Assembly: GCA_965248355.1 (NCBI GenBank)
Contig: OZ252098.1
Location: 1,390,098-1,454,097 of the forward strand
Source of the DNA: Candidatus Latescibacterota bacterium
Lineage (GTDB): Bacteria; Latescibacterota; UBA2968; UBA8231
DNA: 64,000 nucleotides
Direction of reading: 5' to 3'
Shown here in pieces: positions 10,628 to 64,000 of this stretch. Under the pieces are notes generated by a model that made no database searches, was not told the origin of the DNA, and saw only the letters and a program-made list of their open reading frames with translations. Position numbers and translations under genes: made by a program. Within the stretch, counting starts at the first letter, position 1. Each line of letters opens with the position of its first letter.

Positions 10628-11809
10628 TCACTGCCGCCGAGTTCTACCTGCGTTCTCACACAAAGACCGCAGTTCCTTAACTCGATCCAGCATGTCCAGA
10701 TCCCTGTAGGCATTCATCGCACCGTGCCATTGGGAAATGGCCTCTGGCACTCTGCCTATCCGGACGAGAAAGTAACCAAGGCTTGAACGCGAGTGTGCCA
10801 CTCCCTCCTGATTCCCCTCTAGTTGGAAAGCCTGCACTGCGGCACGCCACAGCTTCTCCGCCTCTCTCACATCCCCGCTTTCAGTACTTAATGATGCTGC
10901 GCGCGCATACACCACTGCCGGTGCCCTCTCCCCCGCAGCCTCGTAAGAGTGTAATGCTTCAATCACCAGTCGGTCCGCTCTACGGGCCTCCCCTGATCTA
11001 TCACATATCCAGGCTAACCTCACGGCCGCCACTGCAACGTGCAATGGGCGCTGCAGAAGTCGCAAGACCCTGAGTGCTTCCTCGAACCTGCCCCGAGCCG
11101 ACTCCCACTCCCCCCGTTCTGCGTGAATGTTGCCAATCTGCAAAGCCGTTAGGCCTTGAACGACCGACGGCTCCGCGTCTCTCAGCAGAGAGATCGCTCT
11201 GAGTAGAGCGCGCTCTGCCTCAGTCTCTCGCGATGACTCTAGGAAAAGCATGGCCAAGTCATGATATCCTCCACCCCTTGCCTCCTTACTCTCCTGTAGG
11301 CGGATCGCTGCCCTTAGCCGCTTCTCTGCCTCCAGCAGGCGACCCTGCCGTCGATATACATTGCCCAAGTTCTGTTCATCTACGGCCTGTGCGGCTCGAT
11401 CTCCAACCCCTCGGTGCCATTCGAGTGCGTATCCATGAAAAAGCTCCGCATCGTCCAAGTTCCCCTCAGAGCTTGCCAGCCATCCTAGGAAGCTGTAGTT
11501 GGCGGCAAGCCGGCCCTTGTCCTCTAGGTTCTTGTTGATCTCATAGGACTCCCAGACAAACTTCTCCGCCTGGATGCGGTTTCCTCGAGCCTCCTCTAGG
11601 TAGGCAAGCTCCAGGCACGCATCCGCAAAAATCCGCATCTCCTTCCCTTCAGAGGCAATCTCTCGGACTCTGCTCGCAAGCTCAGAACACCTTGCTAGGC
11701 CCCCCGCTTGCCTCTCTTGCTCCGCCTCCTTCAACCACTCCCTCAATTGCTGGACAGAACCAGATACGCGCTCCCTCTCAAGCCTTCGTGATTTGATGGA
11801 TCGACTCAC
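10628..11809 (-). CDS. TPR-repeat protein
   Basis: Repeated 34-aa units with W/LG/Y...A...A...P patterns through most of a 393-aa ORF. Local GC is about 56%. Confidence 0.55.
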   Translation of the reverse strand: MSRSIKSRRLERERVSGSVQQLREWLKEAEQERQAGGLARCSELASRVREIASEGKEMRIFADACLELAYLEEARGNRIQAEKFVWESYEINKNLEDKGRLAANYSFLGWLASSEGNLDDAELFHGYALEWHRGVGDRAAQAVDEQNLGNVYRRQGRLLEAEKRLRAAIRLQESKEARGGGYHDLAMLFLESSRETEAERALLRAISLLRDAEPSVVQGLTALQIGNIHAERGEWESARGRFEEALRVLRLLQRPLHVAVAAVRLAWICDRSGEARRADRLVIEALHSYEAAGERAPAVVYARAASLSTESGDVREAEKLWRAAVQAFQLEGNQEGVAHSRSSLGYFLVRIGRVPEAISQWHGAMNAYRDLDMLDRVKELRSLCENAGRTRRQ

Positions 11810-12337
11810 TGTCTATTGCCCATAGCCCAAACTGACTGCGAAGATTGGACATTCCGCTACGTCGAGGATACCTGGCGTTCTTGAAGAAAAAGAGAAGAGA
11901 GGATGGCCTCTTCCTTTGGGACGAAGAGTTGCACGGGGACGGAATGAACACGGGCTACCCACCAGCAACCCCACCCTGAGGACGCTCACCGCTTGCCGGC
12001 ATTCGCACTGACCCGTCTGAGCCGGACTTCGGCGCCGTCGATGGCGGAACGATTCTCAAGCAAGCGGCCGGTCCATGCGAACCCGCCGTCGGGGAGAGCT
12101 CCTGCGGTGCGGACCATGAATCCGGGTGGGAGTGCTACAAGCGAGTCCAGAGGGCGACGAGCTCTCATGTGCCGGGTCCTGAGAGTGGAGCAACGATTCC
12201 GGAAGCCCAACGCCCGCGAAACTCTTGGCTGCAGATCTGCGCCGGTCGGAGATACCAAAGGCGGCCAACCGTTCCAGCAGGGGGCCTCAACCAAGGAACG
12301 AAGTCGAGGGTCGCCCGATCTCCTTCTTGGCCACACC

Positions 12338-13855
12338 TCAGAACGGCGTCCAATCTGGGTCCCTGTCTTCCCCAGGATGGTCGACAATATGCTCTTCGGC
12401 ACCCCCCCCTATCGAGATCACGTAGATATCAGAAGCCCCTCCGTCTGCCGAGGAATAACCTGCGAAAGCTACCCGTGTGCCATCCGGTGCCCATGTGGGC
12501 GACCTTCTCAAGGACCTATCGACAGTGAGTTGTCTGGCCCCTCCGCCATCGGCCGCCATTACCCACACATGGCTCTCGGCGGGCCTGAGCTGCTCGATAA
12601 AAGCGATTTGTGTGCCGTCAGGCGACCAGGAAGGATCCCAGACAGGCCAGTCGTTGGTGGAGAGGCGCCGGACATCACCGCTTGGTAGCTGAATGCGAAA
12701 GATGGCCGAGAGGGTGTCCCGCAAGCTGACATAGGCGATGGACCGGCCGTCCGGTGACCACCTCGGATTGAAGGCACTCACCGGATCAATGGTTAGCTGC
12801 TCGGCGTCGGTGCCGTCGGCCTTCATCACAAAGATATCCGTGTTGTAGAAGCCACTTCCTTTCCGTTGCTCGCGCTCACCGTGACGATCCGATGCGAAGG
12901 CGATTAGCCGACCGTCAGGCGACCAGCAGGGATGCCCGTCCCACGCCTCGTGCTGGGTGAGGTTTATCGGCTGGCTGCCATCGGCGCGCATCAGGTAGAT
13001 CTCGGCGTTCCCATCCCTAAACGAAGTAAATGTCACTCTCAACCCGTCAGGCGACCGAGATGGATGAACTCCGTTCCCCGCCCCCGCTCCGTTTGGAGCA
13101 GGCTTCGTGCTATCCGGTTGCGAGCCATCCGATAGGGCGGTCATACTCAGAGCGGCGGACAGATCGGTGACCTCTCCTGTCTCCAGATCGAGAGAGTATA
13201 GTTCGAGATCGCCTCCAGGGATCGACCCGCTCCGCCGGCTTGAAGAGAACAGCAACTGCGTCTCCCTCAAAGGCGCGACATCGTCATTGGTGAAGCCTGA
13301 CCACTCCGGGGGTGCCTCGAAGTCCACGGTGACGCCCCGTTCACGCAACCCGGCCAGAAAGACCGCCGTTTCCCTGCTCAGCGGATTGCCAGCCAAACCC
13401 AGGCTCTGGAGGCTGTCCAGTCCCGCCACCGCCGACACATCCCGCACCCCATTGTCCGCTAGCAGCAGCACCTGCAACCGCTTGAGCGACGCCAGCGCCG
13501 AAATGTCCTCGATCCGGTTGCTCTCCAGATCGAGAAAGCGAAGCTGCTGCAGTCCAGCCAGGGGAGAGATGTCGATGATCTCGTTGTGGGAGAGGTCCAG
13601 GGCCTCGAGCCGCGTAAGCTGTTCGATCCCGCCCAACTCGGCGATGCCCCGGTCCTCGGCACTCAGGGCGGTCATCTCCGCGCCCGCTTCAGACTCATGG
13701 ACCGCCGCCTGCAGCGCCGAGTCCCGGAAGGCTAAGGCAACTCGGCCGGTTCCACCCGGGTCGGGTCCGCCTGGTCCACGACGGCTTGACTCGCAGCACG
13801 TAAGGGCGATCAATACAAGAAACCCCGTTGCCTTGATGCCCCATGTCGGCGCCAT
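12338..13855 (-). CDS. Secreted leucine-rich-repeat plus PD40/TolB-like beta-propeller protein
   Basis: Signal-peptide-like start 'MAPTWGIKATGFLVLIALTC'. LRR units 'LDLSHNEIIDISPLAGLQQLRFLDLESNRIEDISALASL...'. The C-terminal half has repeated 'SP/WSPDG..IAF' PD40 motifs. Confidence 0.6.
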   Translation of the reverse strand: MAPTWGIKATGFLVLIALTCCESSRRGPGGPDPGGTGRVALAFRDSALQAAVHESEAGAEMTALSAEDRGIAELGGIEQLTRLEALDLSHNEIIDISPLAGLQQLRFLDLESNRIEDISALASLKRLQVLLLADNGVRDVSAVAGLDSLQSLGLAGNPLSRETAVFLAGLRERGVTVDFEAPPEWSGFTNDDVAPLRETQLLFSSSRRSGSIPGGDLELYSLDLETGEVTDLSAALSMTALSDGSQPDSTKPAPNGAGAGNGVHPSRSPDGLRVTFTSFRDGNAEIYLMRADGSQPINLTQHEAWDGHPCWSPDGRLIAFASDRHGEREQRKGSGFYNTDIFVMKADGTDAEQLTIDPVSAFNPRWSPDGRSIAYVSLRDTLSAIFRIQLPSGDVRRLSTNDWPVWDPSWSPDGTQIAFIEQLRPAESHVWVMAADGGGARQLTVDRSLRRSPTWAPDGTRVAFAGYSSADGGASDIYVISIGGGAEEHIVDHPGEDRDPDWTPF

Positions 13856-44899: not shown

Positions 44900-45808
44900 A
44901 TGACCATCACAGCCGACGTTCAGACCCTTCCGCAGCGCATCCTCGGCAAGACCGGCGAGCGCGTCCCCGTCCTCGGCCTCGGCTCGGCCTGCGGAGGACT
45001 GGGCCTGGGCGACGCCGAGGCGATCGAGCTCTACGAGAAGGCCATCGACCGCGGCGTCACCTACATCGACACCGCCCCGGGCTACGAGCGCGCCCAGCGG
45101 CAGCTCGGACACGTGGTGCCCCGCCGCCGCGACGAGCTCTTCCTGGTCACCAAGTCGCCCACCGCCGACGGCGCCGAGGCCGTGCGCCTGCTGGAGCAGA
45201 ACCTGCGCGATCTCGGCACCGACGCCGTGGACCTGTGCTACGTCCACTCCCTGGGCAACTACGACGTCGACCAGGTCCTGGCCCCCGACGGCGCCCTCGC
45301 CGGTTTGCGAGAAGCCCAGAGGCGGGGGCTGACCCGCTACGTCGGCTTCACCGCACATCACAAGACCGGAAGCTCGGAGCGCGTCCTCCGGGAGGCGGAG
45401 GTCGACGTCATCATGGTGGCCCTCAACTTCGTCGACCACCACACCTACGGCTTCGACCGCACCGTGCTGCCCCTGGCCGCCGAACGCAACGTCGGCGTGG
45501 CCGCCATGAAGGTCTACGGCGGCGCCGAGGCGATGGAGTACCAAACGCGGGAGGACGAGGACCAGCGCCCCTCCGCCCTGGAGGCCAGCGCCCCCGCCTT
45601 CGATCACGAACGCGCCCTGCGCTGGGCCCTCGGCCTGCCGGGCGTCAACGTCGCCGTGGTCGGCATGTACTCCGAGGAGGAGCTGGACCGCAACATCGAG
45701 TGGGCCCGCCGCTGGCAGCCGCTGACAGCGGAGGAGGAGGCGCAACTGCTGGAGGAAGGCCGGCGTATCGCCCGCTCCTGGGGCGACCACTACGGGGATA
45801 CCACATGA
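44900..45808 (+). CDS. Aldo/keto reductase-family oxidoreductase
   Basis: 'RILGKTGERVPVLGLGS...' with strong SD 'GAGGAGG' upstream. AKR-like 'IDTAPGY', 'HHKTG'. Confidence 0.7.
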   Translation: MTITADVQTLPQRILGKTGERVPVLGLGSACGGLGLGDAEAIELYEKAIDRGVTYIDTAPGYERAQRQLGHVVPRRRDELFLVTKSPTADGAEAVRLLEQNLRDLGTDAVDLCYVHSLGNYDVDQVLAPDGALAGLREAQRRGLTRYVGFTAHHKTGSSERVLREAEVDVIMVALNFVDHHTYGFDRTVLPLAAERNVGVAAMKVYGGAEAMEYQTREDEDQRPSALEASAPAFDHERALRWALGLPGVNVAVVGMYSEEELDRNIEWARRWQPLTAEEEAQLLEEGRRIARSWGDHYGDTT

Positions 45809-47139: not shown

Positions 47140-47594
47140 TACCACCACAAGACCGGAAGCCGGAACGCGTCCTCCGGGAGGCGCAGGTCGACGTCATCAT
47201 CGTAACCCTCAACTTCGACGACCACCACACCTACGGCTTCGACCGCACCGTGCTGCCCCTGGCGGCGGAGCGCAACGTCGGCGTGGCGGCCATGAAGGTC
47301 TACGGCGGCGCCGAGGCGATGGAGTACCGCACCGGTGAGGACGAGGACGGGCGCCCCTCCGCCCTGGAGGCAAACGCGCGGGACTTCGACCACGAGAGAG
47401 CCTTCCGCTGGGCCCTCGGCCTGCTTGGCGTCGGGGTCGCCGTGATCGGCATGTACTCGGAGAAGGAGCTGGACCACAACATCGAGTGGGCCCGCCGCTG
47501 GCAGCCGCTCACGGCGGAGGAGGAGGCGCAATTGCTGGAGGAGGGCCGGCGCATCGCCCGCTCCTGGGGCGACCACTACGGGGACCTGCTGTGA
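47140..47594 (+). pseudogene. Orphan, roughly 90%-identical duplicate of the 3' 455 bp of the AKR gene (45353–45808)
   Basis: Nucleotide and protein alignment: 'RVLREAQVDVIIVTLNFDDHHTYGFDRTVLPLAAERNVGVAAMKVYGGAEAMEY...' vs copy 1 '...REAEVDVIMVALNFVDHHTYGFDRTVLPLAAERNVGVAAMKVYGGAEAMEY...'. No 5' half. Confidence 0.7.
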
Positions 47595-58113: not shown

Positions 58114-59319
58114 TCAAGCCAAGGGGCCCGGGCCCGCGGCGGGGTCCTGTCCGCAGAAGTTCAGGGCGGTGGCCGCGTAGACCCGCGCCACCCGCACCAG
58201 CTCGGCCACGGGGACCCGTTCGCCGGTGGTGTGGGCCCCGGTCGCCGCCGGACCATGGGTGATGGCGGGGATCCCGGCTTGCGCGCAGAAGCGGTTGCCG
58301 TCATCGAGGAAGGGCTTGTCCGCCCAGGGCAGGGCGGCGCCGTCCATGGCCTCCACCGCGCCTTGGAAAGCCCTCACGAGGGGGTCCTCCGGGCGCAGCT
58401 CGAAGGCCTCCCCCACGATCTGGAACTCCACCCGGGCCTCGGCGCCGAAGCGGGAGGCCACGGACCCGGCCAGGGCCGCCAGCTCCTCGCGGACCGTCTC
58501 GCCCCGGCCTTGGGAGACCCATCGGCGCGTGCCCTGGAGCCGGCAGGCCACCGGGGCCTGGTTGAAGATCTCCCCCGACCCGAGCTTGCCCACGAAGACG
58601 GAGTCCCGGCCGCTCACCTCGTGGCGGGTCTGGCTCAGGCGCGCGTCCAGATCTCTAAGCTCCCCCACCAGGGCGGCCCCGGCGGCGACCACGTCCGGGG
58701 TCTCCGGGGGCCGCAGGACCTCGTGCACGGCCTCCCCCGGCCGGGTCAGGCGGATGTCGAAGACGCCCATGCCGCGGCCCGCTCCCGGCAGCCGGTCGGC
58801 CAGGTACTCGGGCAGGAGCACGCCGTCGCCCACGTATCCCTCCCGGATGAGGGCCGCCAGCTGACGGCCGTCCCCCCAGGGAGCCTCGTGGTGGTCGTGG
58901 GCGGTGAGCAGGATCCCGCCGGCCCGCGGCAGGCCGGAGTCGCGCAGGGCGCGCAGGGCCTCCACGGCGGCGGCGATTCCGCCCTTCATGTCCGCCGACC
59001 CCGAGCCCGTGAGCACGCCGCCGCGGACGGCCGGCGGCTCGAAGGGCAGGTGCACGATGTCCAGGTGGCCGTTGAACTGCAGCCAGCGCCCCGGGGCGCC
59101 GCTGTCGAGACGGGCGACGACCGCCGGCGACTCCGGCCAGTCGGCGGCCGGACGCTCCACCTCGAAGCCGTCCGCCCGCAACCGCCGGTCCAGCCGCTCC
59201 GCCGCTTCCCCGGCGGATCTCGTGGGGCTGGCCGCGGCGACCAGGTCCACCGCGGTCTCCAGCAGGCGAGTCTCGTCGACGGCCTCGGCCACGGCGCGGT
59301 GATCAGCAGCGCCGGTCAT
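58114..59319 (-). CDS. M20-family metallopeptidase/deacylase (ArgE/DapE/ACY1-like)
   Basis: 'GSGSADMKGGIAA' motif. Strong SD 'GGAGGAGGAG' before ATG 59319. Confidence 0.7.
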   Translation of the reverse strand: MTGAADHRAVAEAVDETRLLETAVDLVAAASPTRSAGEAAERLDRRLRADGFEVERPAADWPESPAVVARLDSGAPGRWLQFNGHLDIVHLPFEPPAVRGGVLTGSGSADMKGGIAAAVEALRALRDSGLPRAGGILLTAHDHHEAPWGDGRQLAALIREGYVGDGVLLPEYLADRLPGAGRGMGVFDIRLTRPGEAVHEVLRPPETPDVVAAGAALVGELRDLDARLSQTRHEVSGRDSVFVGKLGSGEIFNQAPVACRLQGTRRWVSQGRGETVREELAALAGSVASRFGAEARVEFQIVGEAFELRPEDPLVRAFQGAVEAMDGAALPWADKPFLDDGNRFCAQAGIPAITHGPAATGAHTTGERVPVAELVRVARVYAATALNFCGQDPAAGPGPLA

Positions 59320-59387
59320 GCTGTTCTCCTCCTCCACGGCCTCTCCCCTTTCACTGTCACGGGAACTTTGGTAGTCTAAGCCGCACC

Positions 59388-60977
59388 ATGCGCCCGACAC
59401 CACCACCCTACGGCATCATCTACAACTGGGACGGGGCCCCTCACGGGTACGACGAGGTCCCCCAGTCTATGGAGTCCTTCCTGGAGCGCGTCTACGCGCC
59501 GGTGGAACAGACCCAGGTGGGCGCCCTGTTCTGGTGCGTCGGCGAGCACGGGGCGCGCTGGCCCTCGACCGTCCTGGAGCAGCTCGGCGACATCCACTCG
59601 CGGCGCTACGAAGGGGCCGGCCCCCTGGCGCACACCGAGAACATCCGCCTCATGGTCGAGCGCGGGGAGGACCCGCAGGCGGCGCTCATCGAACGCGGCC
59701 GCAGCCTGGGGCTGCAGGTCTACGCCTCGATGCGCATGAACGACAACCACTTCAACGGCGCCCAGGTCTCCGACCTGCCCACCCTGCACCACACGGAGAT
59801 GACCGACCTGCGGCGCCAGCACCCCGAGTGGCTCCTGGGCTCCCGCACCTCCGAGTGGTTCGCCCTCTCCTGGGACATGTCGGTCCCCGAGGTGCGCCGC
59901 CACCGGCTCGAGCACATCCGCGAGGTCTGCGAGCGCTACGACTGGGACGGCGTCGAGCTGGACTGGCAGCGCCACGCCTTCCACCTGCCCGCCGACGACG
60001 CCTTCCGCCTGCGCTACGTCCTCACCGACCTGCAGCGGGCCGTGCGCCGCTGCGCCGACGAGATCGGCCGGAAGCGCGGGAGGCCGCTGTTCGTGGCCGT
60101 GCGGGTCGCCGGCAACCTGCACATGTGCGAGCAGCTCGGCTACGACCTGCCCGCCTGGCTGGAGGAGGGTCTGGTGGACCTCGTCGCGGCCGGCGGCGGG
60201 GCGGCCACCGACCCCGACGTGGACGTGGCCGGTTTCACCGACCTCTGCAGGACCCATGGCGTGCCCATGTACCCCGGCTTCGACGGCGGCCTCCCCGACC
60301 CCTGGGTCGGCCCCGAGCCGGCCGATGACAAGGACCGGCTGCGCACCCGCGCCATCGCCGCCCGCCACTGGCACCAGGGCGCCGACGGGATCTACGCCTT
60401 CAACTGGCACGCCGGCCGGAACAACCGCCGCGAGCTGCTGAACCAGGTCGGCAGCCCGGAGAGCCTGGCCGCCACCGACAAGGTCCATGCCGCCACCCAC
60501 CGGTTCCTCCAGCACGAGGGGGATTGGCGCGGCGCCTACAGCAACGACCGCGTGCGGGGCACGGTCCCGGTGGCCCTCAAGGAGACGATCACCGAATCCG
60601 GCCCGCTGATCCTCCTCGACGTGGCCGACGACTTCGAGACCCACCCGCCCCGCGCCCTGGAGCTGCGCCTCCACCTGAGCGAGTGGGCCCGGGGCGACGA
60701 GGTCACCGTCCGCTGGGACGGCGCCGAGCTGCCGGCGCCCACCGTGACCTACGACACCACCGGCGATCCCCACGGGATCTCGGGGGTGCAGGCCGCCGCG
60801 TGGGTGCGATTCGCACTGGCCCCCGGCCAGGTGAAAGGTGGGCGGCATGGCGTCGAGGTCATCCTGCGGCGACGTCATCCGCAGATGGCCTGCGATCTCG
60901 TGTTGACCGACGTGGAGCTGGTGGTGGCCTACTCGGAAGGCCTGGCCGGCACCCTGCTGGAAGCCGCCGGCTCCTGA
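59388..60977 (+). CDS. Hypothetical TIM-barrel glycosidase-like protein (GHL10/DUF4015-like?)
   Basis: 'RMNDNHF', 'DGVELDWQRH' patterns. No signal peptide. Confidence 0.35.
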   Translation: MRPTPPPYGIIYNWDGAPHGYDEVPQSMESFLERVYAPVEQTQVGALFWCVGEHGARWPSTVLEQLGDIHSRRYEGAGPLAHTENIRLMVERGEDPQAALIERGRSLGLQVYASMRMNDNHFNGAQVSDLPTLHHTEMTDLRRQHPEWLLGSRTSEWFALSWDMSVPEVRRHRLEHIREVCERYDWDGVELDWQRHAFHLPADDAFRLRYVLTDLQRAVRRCADEIGRKRGRPLFVAVRVAGNLHMCEQLGYDLPAWLEEGLVDLVAAGGGAATDPDVDVAGFTDLCRTHGVPMYPGFDGGLPDPWVGPEPADDKDRLRTRAIAARHWHQGADGIYAFNWHAGRNNRRELLNQVGSPESLAATDKVHAATHRFLQHEGDWRGAYSNDRVRGTVPVALKETITESGPLILLDVADDFETHPPRALELRLHLSEWARGDEVTVRWDGAELPAPTVTYDTTGDPHGISGVQAAAWVRFALAPGQVKGGRHGVEVILRRRHPQMACDLVLTDVELVVAYSEGLAGTLLEAAGS

Positions 60978-61329
60978 CGGCCGCCCGACGCCTGGGCGCC
61001 TGAGACCCGTTGCAACCCCCTCTCCGTTGAAGATCACCGCCCTCGAGCTGACGCCGGTGCGCACCCACCGCGAGATGGGACGCCGCGCCCCCAGCGATCC
61101 CGAGCCGGCCGAGTCCCGCCACGTGGTCGTGCAGCTCCACACCAACGCGGGCGTGACCGGGCTCGGCGAGATGTCGGATGTGGGCTGGGAGTTGGACGCC
61201 GGATCCGCCGCCCGCCTGCAGGCCGCCCTGGAGCCGCTGCTGCTCGGCGCCGACGCCTGGCGCCGGGGCCCGCTGCTGGAAGAGCTATCGCGCCGTCCCT
61301 GGGGGAAGTGTACCCCGTCAACTGGACAG

Positions 61330-61810
61330 GAATTGGGCTTGTACAAGCGAGAGTCTCGAGGGGAGGGTCCAGTTCGGCGAGGAATTCTTCAAAGCTCATC
61401 GGGCCCAGATGTAAGTATTGAATGCGCCCTACGGGCATGGTAAAGGTGTGGGAGCCCGCGGCGACAACCGGCAACTCGGGGTGGTCCTCGAGGAAATAGC
61501 GCAGGGCGGGCAGGGCGTGGGGGGTCGCCTGGATTTCGTCGAGGAAGAGTATGCTGCCCGGTGCCAACAGCGGTTGATCCAGGAGCCCTTGGAGTTCCCG
61601 GCGGATGTGCCTCAGGTCCAAGGTCTGGAACACGGGGTCCAGGTCCGGGTGGCGCTCGAGGTTGATTTCGTTGAGGTGCAGGTGATTGGACTGGGCGAAT
61701 TGTCGCACCAGGGTGGATTTGCCCACTTGACGGGCCCCGCGGATGACCAGCGGCTTTCGCTGTGGAGCGGCCAGCCATTTGGCCAGAGCGCGTTCAGCCG
61801 ACCTGTACAT
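61330..61810 (-). pseudogene. N-terminal fragment of a COG1373-type AAA+ ATPase (AAA_14/DUF4143 family), embedded antisense in the enolase gene
   Basis: 'MYRSAERALAKWLAAPQRKPLVIRGARQVGKSTLVRQF...ILFLDEIQ...YLHLGPMSFEEFL' (Walker A 'GARQVGKST', Walker B 'FLDE'). Truncated after about 160 aa. Confidence 0.5.
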
Positions 61811-61820
61811 GATGAATAAG

Positions 61821-61865
61821 AATGCCCCCGTTTTCGTGCGTATAGCGTACGAAAACGGGGGCATT
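61821..61865. terminator. Perfect 17-bp-stem hairpin (aatgcccccgttttcgt...acgaaaacgggggcatt) followed by TTTT, candidate bidirectional rho-independent terminator
   Basis: The inverted repeat is read directly in the sequence. T-rich tracts lie on both sides. Confidence 0.45.
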
Positions 61866-62793
61866 TTGCAAGGAGGGCGCCGAGCTGCCGGCGCCCACCG
61901 TGACCTACTGCTGGAGGAGCTGTCGCGCCGTCCCTGGGAGCACCAGGTCCTCTGCGGCATCGACATGGCCGTGCACGACGCGGTGGCGCGTGAGCTCGGC
62001 GTGCCTCTAACCGCCCTCCTCGGGGGCGCCTTTCGCGACCGCGTCCCCTTCGCCTATCCCCTCGCCTGCTGCCGGGACGAGGCGACGTGGCGGCCAACCT
62101 CGACCGCATCGAGCGCCGCCTCGGCGAGGGGCATGGCGCCTTCCGCTACTACTTCGGCGTCGACCTGGATTGTGACGAGAGCCTCCTCGACCGGGCCCGC
62201 TCCCGCTGGGGCGACGGCCTGACGCTGACCGCCCTCGACGCCAGCGGCCGCTTCTCGCCCGCCGACGCCGTGGCGGCGCTGAAACGCCTGGCGCCCTTTG
62301 CTCCGGACGTCTTCGAGTCCCCGGTGCGCGGCCGGCACCGTGCGCCGGCGGAGGACTTCCTGGCGGTGAAGGCCGAGATCGACGTGCCGATCTCCGAGCA
62401 CACGGCCGACGAAGCCTCAGCCCTGCGGATGGCCCGGGCCGGCGCCGTGGACGTCTTCAACACCGGACTCGGGTACGCCGGCATCGAGCCCTGCCGCCGC
62501 ACCTTCGCCATGGCCCGCCAGTTCGGTCTGGGAACGCTGATGGGCAGCACCGTGGAGATGTCGATCGGCACCGCCGCGAGAGTCCACGTGGCGGCGGCCA
62601 CGGCGAACCTCGATCACGGCTGCTACATGGCGGGCCCCTTGGTGTACCACGAGGACCTAACCGTGGAGCCGGTCCGCTACGAAGAGGGGCAGGTGCTGGT
62701 GCCCGACGGCCCGGGGCTGGGCGTCGAGCTGGATCCCGAGAAGCTGCGGGCGCTGCAGATCTGAGCGGCGCTATTCGATGCGGCTCCAGCCTC

Positions 62794-63402
62794 TCATCGA
62801 AGCAGAGTCAGTTTCCTCATCTTGACGACATCGCCCGCGACGAGACGGGCCAGGTACACCCCGCTGGCAAGGGATTCGTGCCCTTCGGTGTCCCACACGG
62901 CCTCGTAGGCGCCGGGAGAGTGCATCCCGTTGGCCAGAGAGGCCATCGGCTGACCGAGGGCATTGTAGATGGTCAGCGTTACCTGACCGTCCCGGGAGAC
63001 CGTGTAAGGAATCCTCGTCTCGCCGTTGAAGGGGTTGGGATAGTTGCTGTGCAAGGCAGATACGGACGGTTCGGAGAGATGGTGCACAGCTGTCCTGGCA
63101 GGGAGGTAGAGGGCGATGCTTTCTGGACGTTCGTTGTTTCGCCCATAGAGGAAGTGTTCAAAATAAACGGAATGCGCATCTATTTCGTCCCTGTCCAACC
63201 GATGGAGACTCACCCAATCCGCCGCCTGCAATGGGCCCAGCGGACTCGATTGCCAAGTCATCCAGTATACCCGATCACGAGCCAGGGCGATGGGAGTGCG
63301 GTCCCATACAAGAAAGCCATGTGGGTCTCGGTAAAGGCTTTCCCTTTCACCGCCATCCGAATCAATCCTCCACAATCCCTTTTCGTCTGCCCAGTAGATC
63401 AA
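62794..63402 (-). CDS. T9SS/FlgD-Ig-like C-terminal sorting-domain protein with YWTD/NHL-like repeat, 5'-truncated by the IS5 insertion
   Basis: C-terminal '...PNPFNGETRIPYTVSRDGQVTLTIYNALGQPMASL...SGVYLARLVAGDVVKMRKLTLLR*'. The ORF abuts the IS5 end at about 63430. Confidence 0.55.
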   Translation of the reverse strand: MIYWADEKGLWRIDSDGGERESLYRDPHGFLVWDRTPIALARDRVYWMTWQSSPLGPLQAADWVSLHRLDRDEIDAHSVYFEHFLYGRNNERPESIALYLPARTAVHHLSEPSVSALHSNYPNPFNGETRIPYTVSRDGQVTLTIYNALGQPMASLANGMHSPGAYEAVWDTEGHESLASGVYLARLVAGDVVKMRKLTLLR

Positions 63403-63440
63403 CTCTTGTTGACCATCAACAGCAATGTCGTGAACCTATC

Positions 63441-63998
63441 TCAAAATTGAAATTGCTTAAGTAAAATCAGGATGGAGGCAAGTTGGACGAAGCCAAGAAA
63501 ATTCTCCGGATACAATTCCCAGCGAGTGATCACTCGACGCTGCCATTGAAGCCAAGCGAAGAATCTCTCCACCATCCAACGCCGCACATAGCGACGCAAT
63601 CGGCGTCCGTCCTGAGTCTTTTTCTTGGTTCGGTTCTGGCGATGGGGAGCGATCATCTCGACCCCTTCTTTCTTCAGCTCCTCATCTAACGGGTCGCTGT
63701 CGTAGGCTTTGTCTCCAATCAAGTTCTTGGGTTTGTCTTCGATCAGGTAGAAGTCAAACGTCAACTGAACCAGCGTCACTTCATGATGGTTCGCTGCATG
63801 CGTGCTCACCGACAAGGGAAGCCCATGGCGGTCCACGATCCCCATGACTCGTACGCCCTTGCCTCGCTTGGTGTGGCCGATATCGGCACCTCCACCCTTG
63901 GCCGCCGAGAACATGCCATCAATGAAAGCTTCCGATTCGTCCAAGTCCCCTTGCTCGTGAAGAGTCTGGGCCAGGTCCACGAGAACTTCGCGTAACAC
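63441..63998 (-). CDS. IS5-family (IS427/IS5 group) transposase, partial (N-terminus beyond the window edge)
   Basis: 'IGDKAYDSD...ERFFAWLQWQRRVITRWE' DDE_Tnp_1 C-terminal motifs. GC is about 50%. Confidence 0.75.
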   Translation of the reverse strand: MLREVLVDLAQTLHEQGDLDESEAFIDGMFSAAKGGGADIGHTKRGKGVRVMGIVDRHGLPLSVSTHAANHHEVTLVQLTFDFYLIEDKPKNLIGDKAYDSDPLDEELKKEGVEMIAPHRQNRTKKKTQDGRRLRRYVRRWMVERFFAWLQWQRRVITRWELYPENFLGFVQLASILILLKQFQF

Positions 63999-64000
63999 CC

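Follow-up and report, generated by a model that had tools for sequence, protein, structure and literature searches.

A gene of the enolase superfamily (MR/MLE family) in a 64,000-nucleotide stretch of Candidatus Latescibacterota DNA (contig OZ252098.1; hereafter the window, whose own numbering is used throughout) is broken by a 635-bp block (61304-61938) when compared with the intact gene of relatives. We read the block as a scar that illegitimate recombination left in a dead gene; it has no function, is an instance of ordinary genome decay and reveals no new system. The interruption is composite and contains at least three unrelated pieces, the largest of which is the 5' part of an ATPase gene lying on the opposite strand next to a perfect hairpin. 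On balance we favour the view that it is the decayed derivative of an illegitimate join of the type seen in two relatives (L005 and L088), reached by a multi-step route in a hypervariable cargo slot; the order and number of the steps and the enzymology are what we infer from the sequences. The sequence was read over 60400-64000 and repeats were searched over 59500-64000. The relatives, whose loci carry L numbers, are metagenome-assembled genomes (MAGs) of Candidatus Latescibacterota; a GTDB genome scan yielded relatives, and several of the closer ones are recorded under other phylum labels.

The upstream piece of the enolase-family gene (c1, 61027-61303, plus strand) corresponds to nt 1-277 of the 1104-nt gene, matches MR_MLE_N and is colinear with the intact genes of L003-L006 and L089-L091. 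The downstream piece (c2, 61908-62764, plus strand) corresponds to nt 247-1104 and matches MR_MLE_C. Cutting out 61304-61938 leaves 1103 nt colinear with the 1104-nt orthologues, which bears out the proposal, made in an earlier note from the letters of the window alone, that an MR/MLE-like gene is split by an insertion of roughly 635 bp. The comparison with an intact orthologue which that note had recommended gave the same picture, as the closest relatives hold the gene unbroken (367 aa). When the two pieces were joined and a 1-nt frameshift was bridged, the rebuilt protein matched MR_MLE_C with 1.5e-39 and MR_MLE_N with 5.2e-13. The top NCBIfam match of the intact L005 orthologue is muconate cycloisomerase, with a score under the cutoff of that family. 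In a JGI metagenome scan with the enolase protein the sole match was unrelated (24%). The GC content of the inserted block is 58-64% vs 71-76% in the flanking enolase-family and GH-like (glycoside hydrolase-like) genes.

The frameshift results from the deletion of a single C at ~62081/62082 in c2, relative to all eight intact orthologues, and disrupts the 3' part of the gene. It is an inactivating lesion independent of the 635-bp block, and with both lesions present the enolase-family reading frame is not uninterrupted in the window. The gene had been described as a pseudogene unless the insertion is removed; it is dead indeed, but excision of the block would not mend it because of the separate 1-nt deletion. 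This deletion and a filler of 40-54 nt at 61304-61357 had both been overlooked. The five features reported for the block (the split gene, the ATPase fragment, the hairpin, the ectopic copy and the direct repeats) are all present, with coordinates at most one base off, and none of them is a chance match.

Two 31-nt direct repeats lie on the plus strand, one at the end of c1 (61273-61303, enolase nt 247-277 as in c1) and the other at the start of c2 (61908-61938). They differ at two positions (GAA/GAG and CTA/CTG), both synonymous third positions in the enolase frame, and the GAA and CTA changes carried by the first repeat were not found in the closest relatives. Near-identical repeats had thus been described correctly, but the second one starts at 61908 and not at 61909. 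The two mismatches in 31 positions, the unequal identity of c1 and c2 to the related locus L090 and the L005/L088 fusion (see below) argue that the repeats are probably not a target-site duplication. The arrangement suggests two partial gene copies that overlap after a deletion, rather than a one-step insertion, by a route reconstructed below.

Directly before the second repeat, 61876-61908 (plus strand) is an exact 33-nt copy of 60720-60752 (plus strand), a segment inside the GH-like gene that lies 1156 nt upstream in the same orientation. The copy had been reported as 32 bp (60721-60752 and 61877-61908); it exists, but its true length is 33 nt, and the match grows to 37 nt with one mismatch if it is started from 60716/61872. 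Simulated versions of the window (20, third-order Markov) had longest exact repeats of 16-19 nt, compared with the 33 nt of the patch. Each of the five relatives compared (L002-L006) departs from the source stretch at 2-6 positions; the patch carries the window's own allele of the GH-like gene and was therefore copied within the window's lineage. Position 61908 is common to the end of the patch and the start of the second repeat, a 1-nt overlap. At the other end of the block there is a filler (61304-61342, right boundary possibly out to 61357, that is about 40-54 nt) to which no origin could be assigned: it had no significant match in the window, in the 91 related loci or in the ATPase genes. 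The idea that it is degenerate ATPase sequence was rejected, as its Smith-Waterman scores were not above those of shuffled sequences, and ATPase protein homology (LDPPLE, about 4-5 codons more) extends only to ~61343.

The ATPase 5' fragment (61343-61810, minus strand) consists of about 155 codons of an AAA_14 + DUF4143 ATPase of the candidate defence family PDC-S01. In agreement with the earlier description of a 5'-only COG1373 AAA+ ATPase fragment on the opposite strand, the antisense sequence from 61810 down to ~61343 matched Pfam AAA_14 with 1.9e-23 over residues 18-144. Its nucleotide identity to the full-length genes of L005, L006 and L088 is 86-89%. The full-length ATPase of L005 (456 aa) contains AAA_14 and DUF4143 and gave a PADLOC PDC-S01 match of 7e-147; the full-length L088 gene has PF13173 and PF13635. 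The window fragment ends at about codon 155, without the C-terminal DUF4143 (PD-(D/E)xK-like) domain, and compared with L005 it has a 24-nt in-frame deletion (LLEFVLSQ) between 61449 and 61450. Because only the N-terminal part is kept, and that with an internal deletion, the window ATPase is not a working copy. No second copy of the ATPase, the hairpin or the block was found in the 64-kb window, and none of the block in the DNA of the loci fetched. NCBIfam has no family for either the ATPase or the GH-like protein.

Two side observations concern the ATPase family. The L006 ATPase, otherwise full-length, lacks an overlapping but different 30 nt at the matching spot (~13800), so that the 24-nt and 30-nt losses are two independent in-frame deletions in one segment of the gene. 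Furthermore, the best 120 protein-database homologues of the fragment (61304-61810, minus strand) are all shorter than 300 aa, and many of them lie within a long contig or at the end of one; it therefore seems that this ATPase family has unusually many copies that are truncated or break assemblies.

The hairpin (61821-61865; arms 61821-61840 and 61846-61865) has a perfect 17-bp core and a folding energy of -35 to -42 kcal/mol (z = -5.7 to -6.9 vs shuffles). A palindrome of about 45 nt, located about 10 nt upstream of the ATPase ATG, is conserved in seven loci (L001, L002, L005, L006, L083, L084 and L088) as well as in the window, in at least five unrelated genomic contexts, and its stem is conserved across loci with two compensatory pairs. 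Homology between the hairpin loci stops about 0-9 nt outside the palindrome. In the window the last bases homologous to other ATPase loci are the flank TTTTGCAAG (61864-61872), after which the illegitimate junction follows directly; homology to L001, L002, L005, L083, L084 and L088 ends at 61866-61872. Since homology ends 0-9 nt beyond the hairpin, the window block ends at the natural edge of the cassette. Judged by this conservation, the hairpin is the conserved 5' element of the ATPase gene and was not made by the rearrangement. The perfect hairpin noticed before as part of a scrambled junction is present, but it belongs to the ATPase family.

An Rfam search of 60900-64000, hairpin included, gave no match, and a promoter and terminator scan called nothing at the hairpin. 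Intrinsic terminators have a GC-rich stem followed by a U-tract; the hairpin has a strong stem with TTTT after it on the plus strand, and on the ATPase strand the tail is CATTCTTATT. Candidate roles of the palindrome are an operator, a structure in the 5' untranslated region, a terminator of the upstream gene and a cassette boundary. The conserved palindrome marks the 5' edge of this PDC-S01 subfamily and coincides with rearrangement junctions, and a part in moving or regulating the cassette is the single lead that may go further. The attC sites of integrons are imperfect palindromes with RYYYAAC / GTTRRRY core sites and extrahelical bases and have an integrase nearby. The hairpin has no attC core-site motifs at its edges, is a near-perfect palindrome and lies upstream, not downstream, of the open reading frame (ORF); no integrase was found among the ORFs of 57-64 kb.

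Five states of the locus were found among the relatives. In Type I (L003, L004) the GH-like gene is followed by an intact enolase-family gene, a small hicB-like gene and the NAT gene. In Type II (L002, L006) an intact enolase-family gene is followed by a convergent full-length ATPase gene, the hairpin and the NAT gene; the L002 enolase-family gene has one frameshift, in a contig at 4x. Type III (L005, L088) resembles Type II up to the flank TTTTGCAAG, after which come a second enolase copy, a gene for a protein with a type IX secretion system (T9SS) sorting signal and the NAT gene. This second copy begins only at nt 200 and lacks 383 nt internally, and the T9SS gene after it encodes 692-694 aa. 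Type IV (L089-L091) has the GH-like gene, an intact 367-aa enolase-family gene, the T9SS gene and the NAT gene, and no ATPase. In the fifth state (L086) only a 5'-truncated enolase remnant (from ~nt 317) is left beside an intact T9SS gene. The full-length ATPase is convergent with, and directly downstream of, the enolase gene in L002, L005, L006 and L088. At the L005/L088 junction TGCAAG of the cassette flank meets TGCAGG of the enolase gene, a microhomology of 5/6 bases. As the cargo differs across relatives (hicB-like gene, ATPase, ATPase plus T9SS gene), the slot downstream of the enolase gene turns over.

The closest relatives of the window are L089, L090 and L091, with a 95% identical GH-like protein and 97-99% nucleotide identity over 50.3-58.1 kb of the window. 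L090 is a circular 5.57-Mb contig at 27x coverage, whereas L005 (a short-read MAG) and L088 (a 3-Mb contig) are independent assemblies. As a side observation, L004 contains between its GH-like and intact enolase genes (11621-12820) two degenerate enolase fragments (nt ~583-677 and ~825-868), which are followed, as judged by eye, by a DUF2384-type antitoxin and a RES-like toxin remnant; it is a further instance of enolase remnants next to inserted cargo.

The favoured route would have started from the gene order of the closest relatives, with a GH-like gene, an intact enolase gene, a convergent gene for the T9SS-sorted protein and the NAT gene. DNA of a diverged relative, in which a PDC-S01 ATPase cassette (ORF plus 5' hairpin) is convergent with its enolase gene, would then have entered. 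This first step may have been import or partial duplication. On one side the connection would have been made by a homologous crossover in the GH-like/enolase region; on the other side the end just past the hairpin (TTTTGCAAG) would have been joined illegitimately inside the resident enolase gene, as in homology-facilitated illegitimate recombination (HFIR). The result would have been a complete enolase gene of the donor, followed by the ATPase and the hairpin and then by the resident enolase copy without its 5' part, an arrangement still present in L005 and L088. In the lineage of the window a deletion of ~1.7 kb, from nt 278 of copy 1 to about codon 155 of the ATPase, would have taken out three-quarters of copy 1 from its 3' side, the spacer, and two-thirds of the ATPase gene from its distal side, with about 40 nt of filler left behind. 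The place of the first ~47 nt of copy 2 would have been taken by 33 nt of the lineage's own GH-like gene, which lies 1.15 kb upstream, through a switch of template in the course of repair. The 1-nt deletion and the insertion of an IS5 element into the T9SS gene would have come last. The 31-bp repeats would, along this route, represent the overlap of the two surviving partial enolase copies.

One link to this route is the configuration of L005 and L088, which carry TTTTGCAAG fused to enolase nt 200, 47 nt from the join in the window, with the same T9SS gene next. The sequence after the enolase stop codon of the window matches that after copy 2 of L005 and not that after copy 1. The L005-type junction keeps enolase nt 200-246 where the window has the patch, thus the patch is the derived state. 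Two of the 31 positions differ between the repeats, whereas the patch still matches perfectly over its 33 nt. From one side of the block to the other the identity to L090 shifts: it is 88% in the 3' part of the GH-like gene and 94.6% in c1, and 98.3% over the 300 nt with which c2 begins (Fisher p = 0.02 for c1 against these 300 nt, 2e-6 with the GH-like 3' part included). On the compared sequences this shift agrees with a different origin of the two alleles. An origin by tandem duplication through unequal crossover was considered and rejected: it predicts the spacer and the ATPase after the second enolase copy, where the T9SS gene is found instead, and the spacer is unrelated to the T9SS gene. 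Codon-position bias was tried as a means of dating the loss of function of copy 2 and was discarded, because the dead second copies of L005, L086 and L088 show the same third-position bias.

Several observations weigh against the multi-step route, and some of them speak for a one-step complex insertion, which we regard as possible but rather doubtful. According to this alternative a break or stalled fork at enolase nt 247-277 was followed by serial template switches, as in microhomology-mediated break-induced replication (MMBIR) or fork stalling and template switching (FoSTeS), or by end-joining with captured fragments; the path would have led through the filler template, the ATPase cassette to just past the hairpin and 33 nt of the GH-like gene back to the enolase gene, 31 nt short of where it had left, which would create the repeats. 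One event of this sort would yield an identical end product. In the closest relatives L089-L091 the gene is intact, with neither ATPase nor second copy at this place, and therefore parsimony judged from the flanks alone points to an insertion made directly in a whole gene; colinearity returns once exactly 635 nt are cut out. The crowding of three junctions into 635 nt, together with a short insert templated from close by and a 1-nt overlap, is a pattern described for MMBIR (PMC2621351). Both enolase pieces of the window resemble the alleles of the closest clade rather than those of L005/L088. The left junction (61303/61304) and the patch were found in no relative compared, and a tree of the 411-nt 3' enolase segment was star-like, with no derived sites common to c2 of the window and of L005. 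Microhomology at the window's own junctions is minimal, with 1 nt at 61908 and an ambiguous GGAG at 61872-61875, and the filler is left without explanation. The identity change at the junction could be a coincidence because the whole region is a recombination mosaic, and codon-position patterns do not discriminate between the scenarios. On the other hand, the two differences in 31 positions between the repeats, beside a perfect 33-nt patch, and the shift in identity to L090 across the junction speak against a one-step event. The same cassette end in the same gene, 47 nt away and with the same T9SS gene next, would have to be a coincidence in L005 and L088, and no donor ATPase locus is known in the genome of the window.

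A further rival is an assembly artefact, either a chimeric join or a strain-mixture consensus with junctions that exist in no cell. The window's own sequence was absent from every collection searched, so that no independent copy of its junctions was available, and an exact look-up of its GH-like protein gave no record. The 89-99% identity mosaic relative to L090 is a pattern that strain mixing could mimic, and the junction near a strong palindrome and the 33-nt copy are both unique to the window sequence. We consider such an artefact improbable, since no repeat spans 61303/61304 to mislead an assembler, a k-mer mis-join could not produce a 33-mer for a second time with unrelated sequence on both sides, and the adjacency of hairpin and enolase sequence, with the T9SS gene next, recurs in the two independent assemblies of L005 and L088. 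Furthermore, the 1-nt deletion, the 24-nt in-frame ATPase deletion and an IS element with a 99.6% identical copy in L086 fit a genuinely decaying locus. It is slightly harder still to credit that the PDC-S01 ATPase and its 45-nt palindrome form a discrete mobile cassette whose hairpin end is recombinogenic, being cleaved or serving as a strand-switch point through some function of the host or the cassette. If this were so, the two enolase fusions, which look independent (at nt 200 in L005/L088, and at nt 247 via the patch in the window), would be hairpin-directed insertions by a mechanism not so far described for defence genes. Least credible of all is that the block itself is a discrete mobile element (MITE-like or derived from an insertion sequence (IS), an integron cassette, or otherwise excisable) that duplicated 31 bp of its target. 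Direct repeats do flank the block, and the ATPase cassette with its sharp hairpin end is found in at least five genomic contexts and varies in presence between relatives. But no terminal inverted repeats pairing the block ends were found in the repeat search, the hairpin being internal, there is no transposase or integrase, and the sole ORF is the truncated ATPase. At its far end the block stops in a broken gene and filler instead of an element terminus, and one piece is a copy of an adjacent chromosomal gene. Target duplications are usually far shorter than these repeats, which are moreover imperfect; attC core sites are missing from the hairpin, the frameshift would remain after excision, and neither block nor hairpin recurs in the 64 kb. 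The earlier reading of the block as a footprint of illegitimate recombination rather than of a standard IS thus holds, given the intact gene in relatives, the composite structure and the lack of terminal inverted repeats and transposase.

The genes next to the enolase-family gene differ in their state. Upstream, the GH-like (GHL10-like) gene (59388-60977, plus strand) is intact, a 529-aa ORF with a weak GHL10 match, and its product is 95% identical to protein P0181. Its identity to L090 is 97.4% at 59338-60537 vs 88% at 60538-60977 (Fisher p = 8e-13), and by this comparison the 3' third of the gene (60538-60977) is a divergent mosaic block. Over 58138-63431 identity to L090 alternates between 89% and 99% in blocks of 300-1200 nt, which points to frequent homologous exchange among strains, or else to strain mixing in the assembly. 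Downstream, the T9SS-sorted beta-propeller gene (62794-63431, minus strand) is truncated by an IS to its C-terminal 212 codons, which include a Por_Secre_tail match; the remnant is 97% identical to the C-terminal 212 aa of the 698-aa protein P0123, and the gene is intact in L086, L087, L089 and L090. The IS5-family element (63432-64000, minus strand; NCBIfam transpos_IS5_3, 7e-36) cuts the T9SS gene at 63431/63432 and runs past the window end. A 99.6% identical copy is located in L086 (14444-15013) in another context, with homology starting exactly at 63432, which suggests that the element is active, or recently was so, in this clade.

Other differences were noted farther from the block. The spacer between the GH-like and enolase genes has an 8-nt insertion (GACGCCTG, 60987-60994) relative to L089-L091. 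At 58118-58138, between an epimerase and an M20 peptidase gene, the window lacks ~1.1 kb of L089-L091; this segment contains two short ORFs in L089-L091, and in L002 and L088 a gene for a 321-336-aa PF01636 (APH-type kinase) protein. A second partial duplication in the window (45356-45798 vs 47143-47584, 443 nt, ~90% identity, offset 1786) has exact runs of up to 45 nt and lies near what is, as judged by eye, a nucleotidyltransferase-type toxin-antitoxin gene.

The locus provides a base-by-base view of the turnover of a variable cargo slot in an uncultured, host-associated phylum (sponge-type Candidatus Latescibacterota). In the route outlined above, a candidate defence gene would arrive next to a metabolic gene, with a partial duplicate left by the illegitimate joint. 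Later deletions, the templated patch and an IS would account for the loss of cargo and metabolic gene alike in one lineage, whereas both are retained in sister lineages. The locus may also be of use as an annotated case in the calling of pseudogenes and in the study of the natural traces that microhomology and template-switch repair leave in bacteria.

Among the closest known processes, HFIR is one model for the join. In PMC6382021 HFIR is described for the uptake of diverged DNA in Acinetobacter, S. pneumoniae and P. stutzeri (citing de Vries & Wackernagel 2002, Prudhomme 2002 and Meier & Wackernagel 2003), with joints of 3-10 bp (citing de Vries & Wackernagel 2002). The likeness consists in one homologous side (the GH-like/enolase region) and one illegitimate joint, with microhomology at the joint of L005/L088, in the gain of foreign cargo (the ATPase cassette) and in a divergent block on the anchor side of the window. 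The donor/recipient pattern (88% in the GH-like 3' part and 94.6% in c1 vs 98.3% in c2, relative to L090) lies in a wholly mosaic region without an identified donor lineage. In contrast to those systems, the process is deduced here from an uncultured organism, the window's own joints have overlaps of 0-4 nt, a later deletion and the patch are needed, and part of the target is duplicated in the product, not lost. The definition of MMBIR/FoSTeS rests mainly on human copy-number variants and on amplification in E. coli (PMC2621351). The block resembles its products in the clustered junctions, the templated insertion in the same orientation from ~1.15 kb away, the small duplication at the return point and the minimal microhomology, but no locus of the same genome is known from which its largest piece could stem, and its repeats are not identical.

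PDC-S01 comprises candidate phage-defence genes in which an AAA_14 ATPase is fused to a DUF4143 / PD-(D/E)xK-like domain (PADLOC; PMC12988326). The full-length relatives of the window fragment match its models at 7e-147 and occur as variable cargo in an island-like slot beside toxin-antitoxin genes; in contrast, the window keeps only the N-terminal part of the ATPase, with an internal deletion. The state of the window locus as a whole is that of a decaying region. Pseudogenes and IS-driven decay are ordinary in host-associated bacteria, and the four disruptions within 3 kb (the enolase-family gene, the ATPase, the T9SS protein gene and the IS insertion), with intact versions in close relatives, conform to this picture, although the composite, multi-template block of the window is more elaborate than a simple frameshift or IS insertion.

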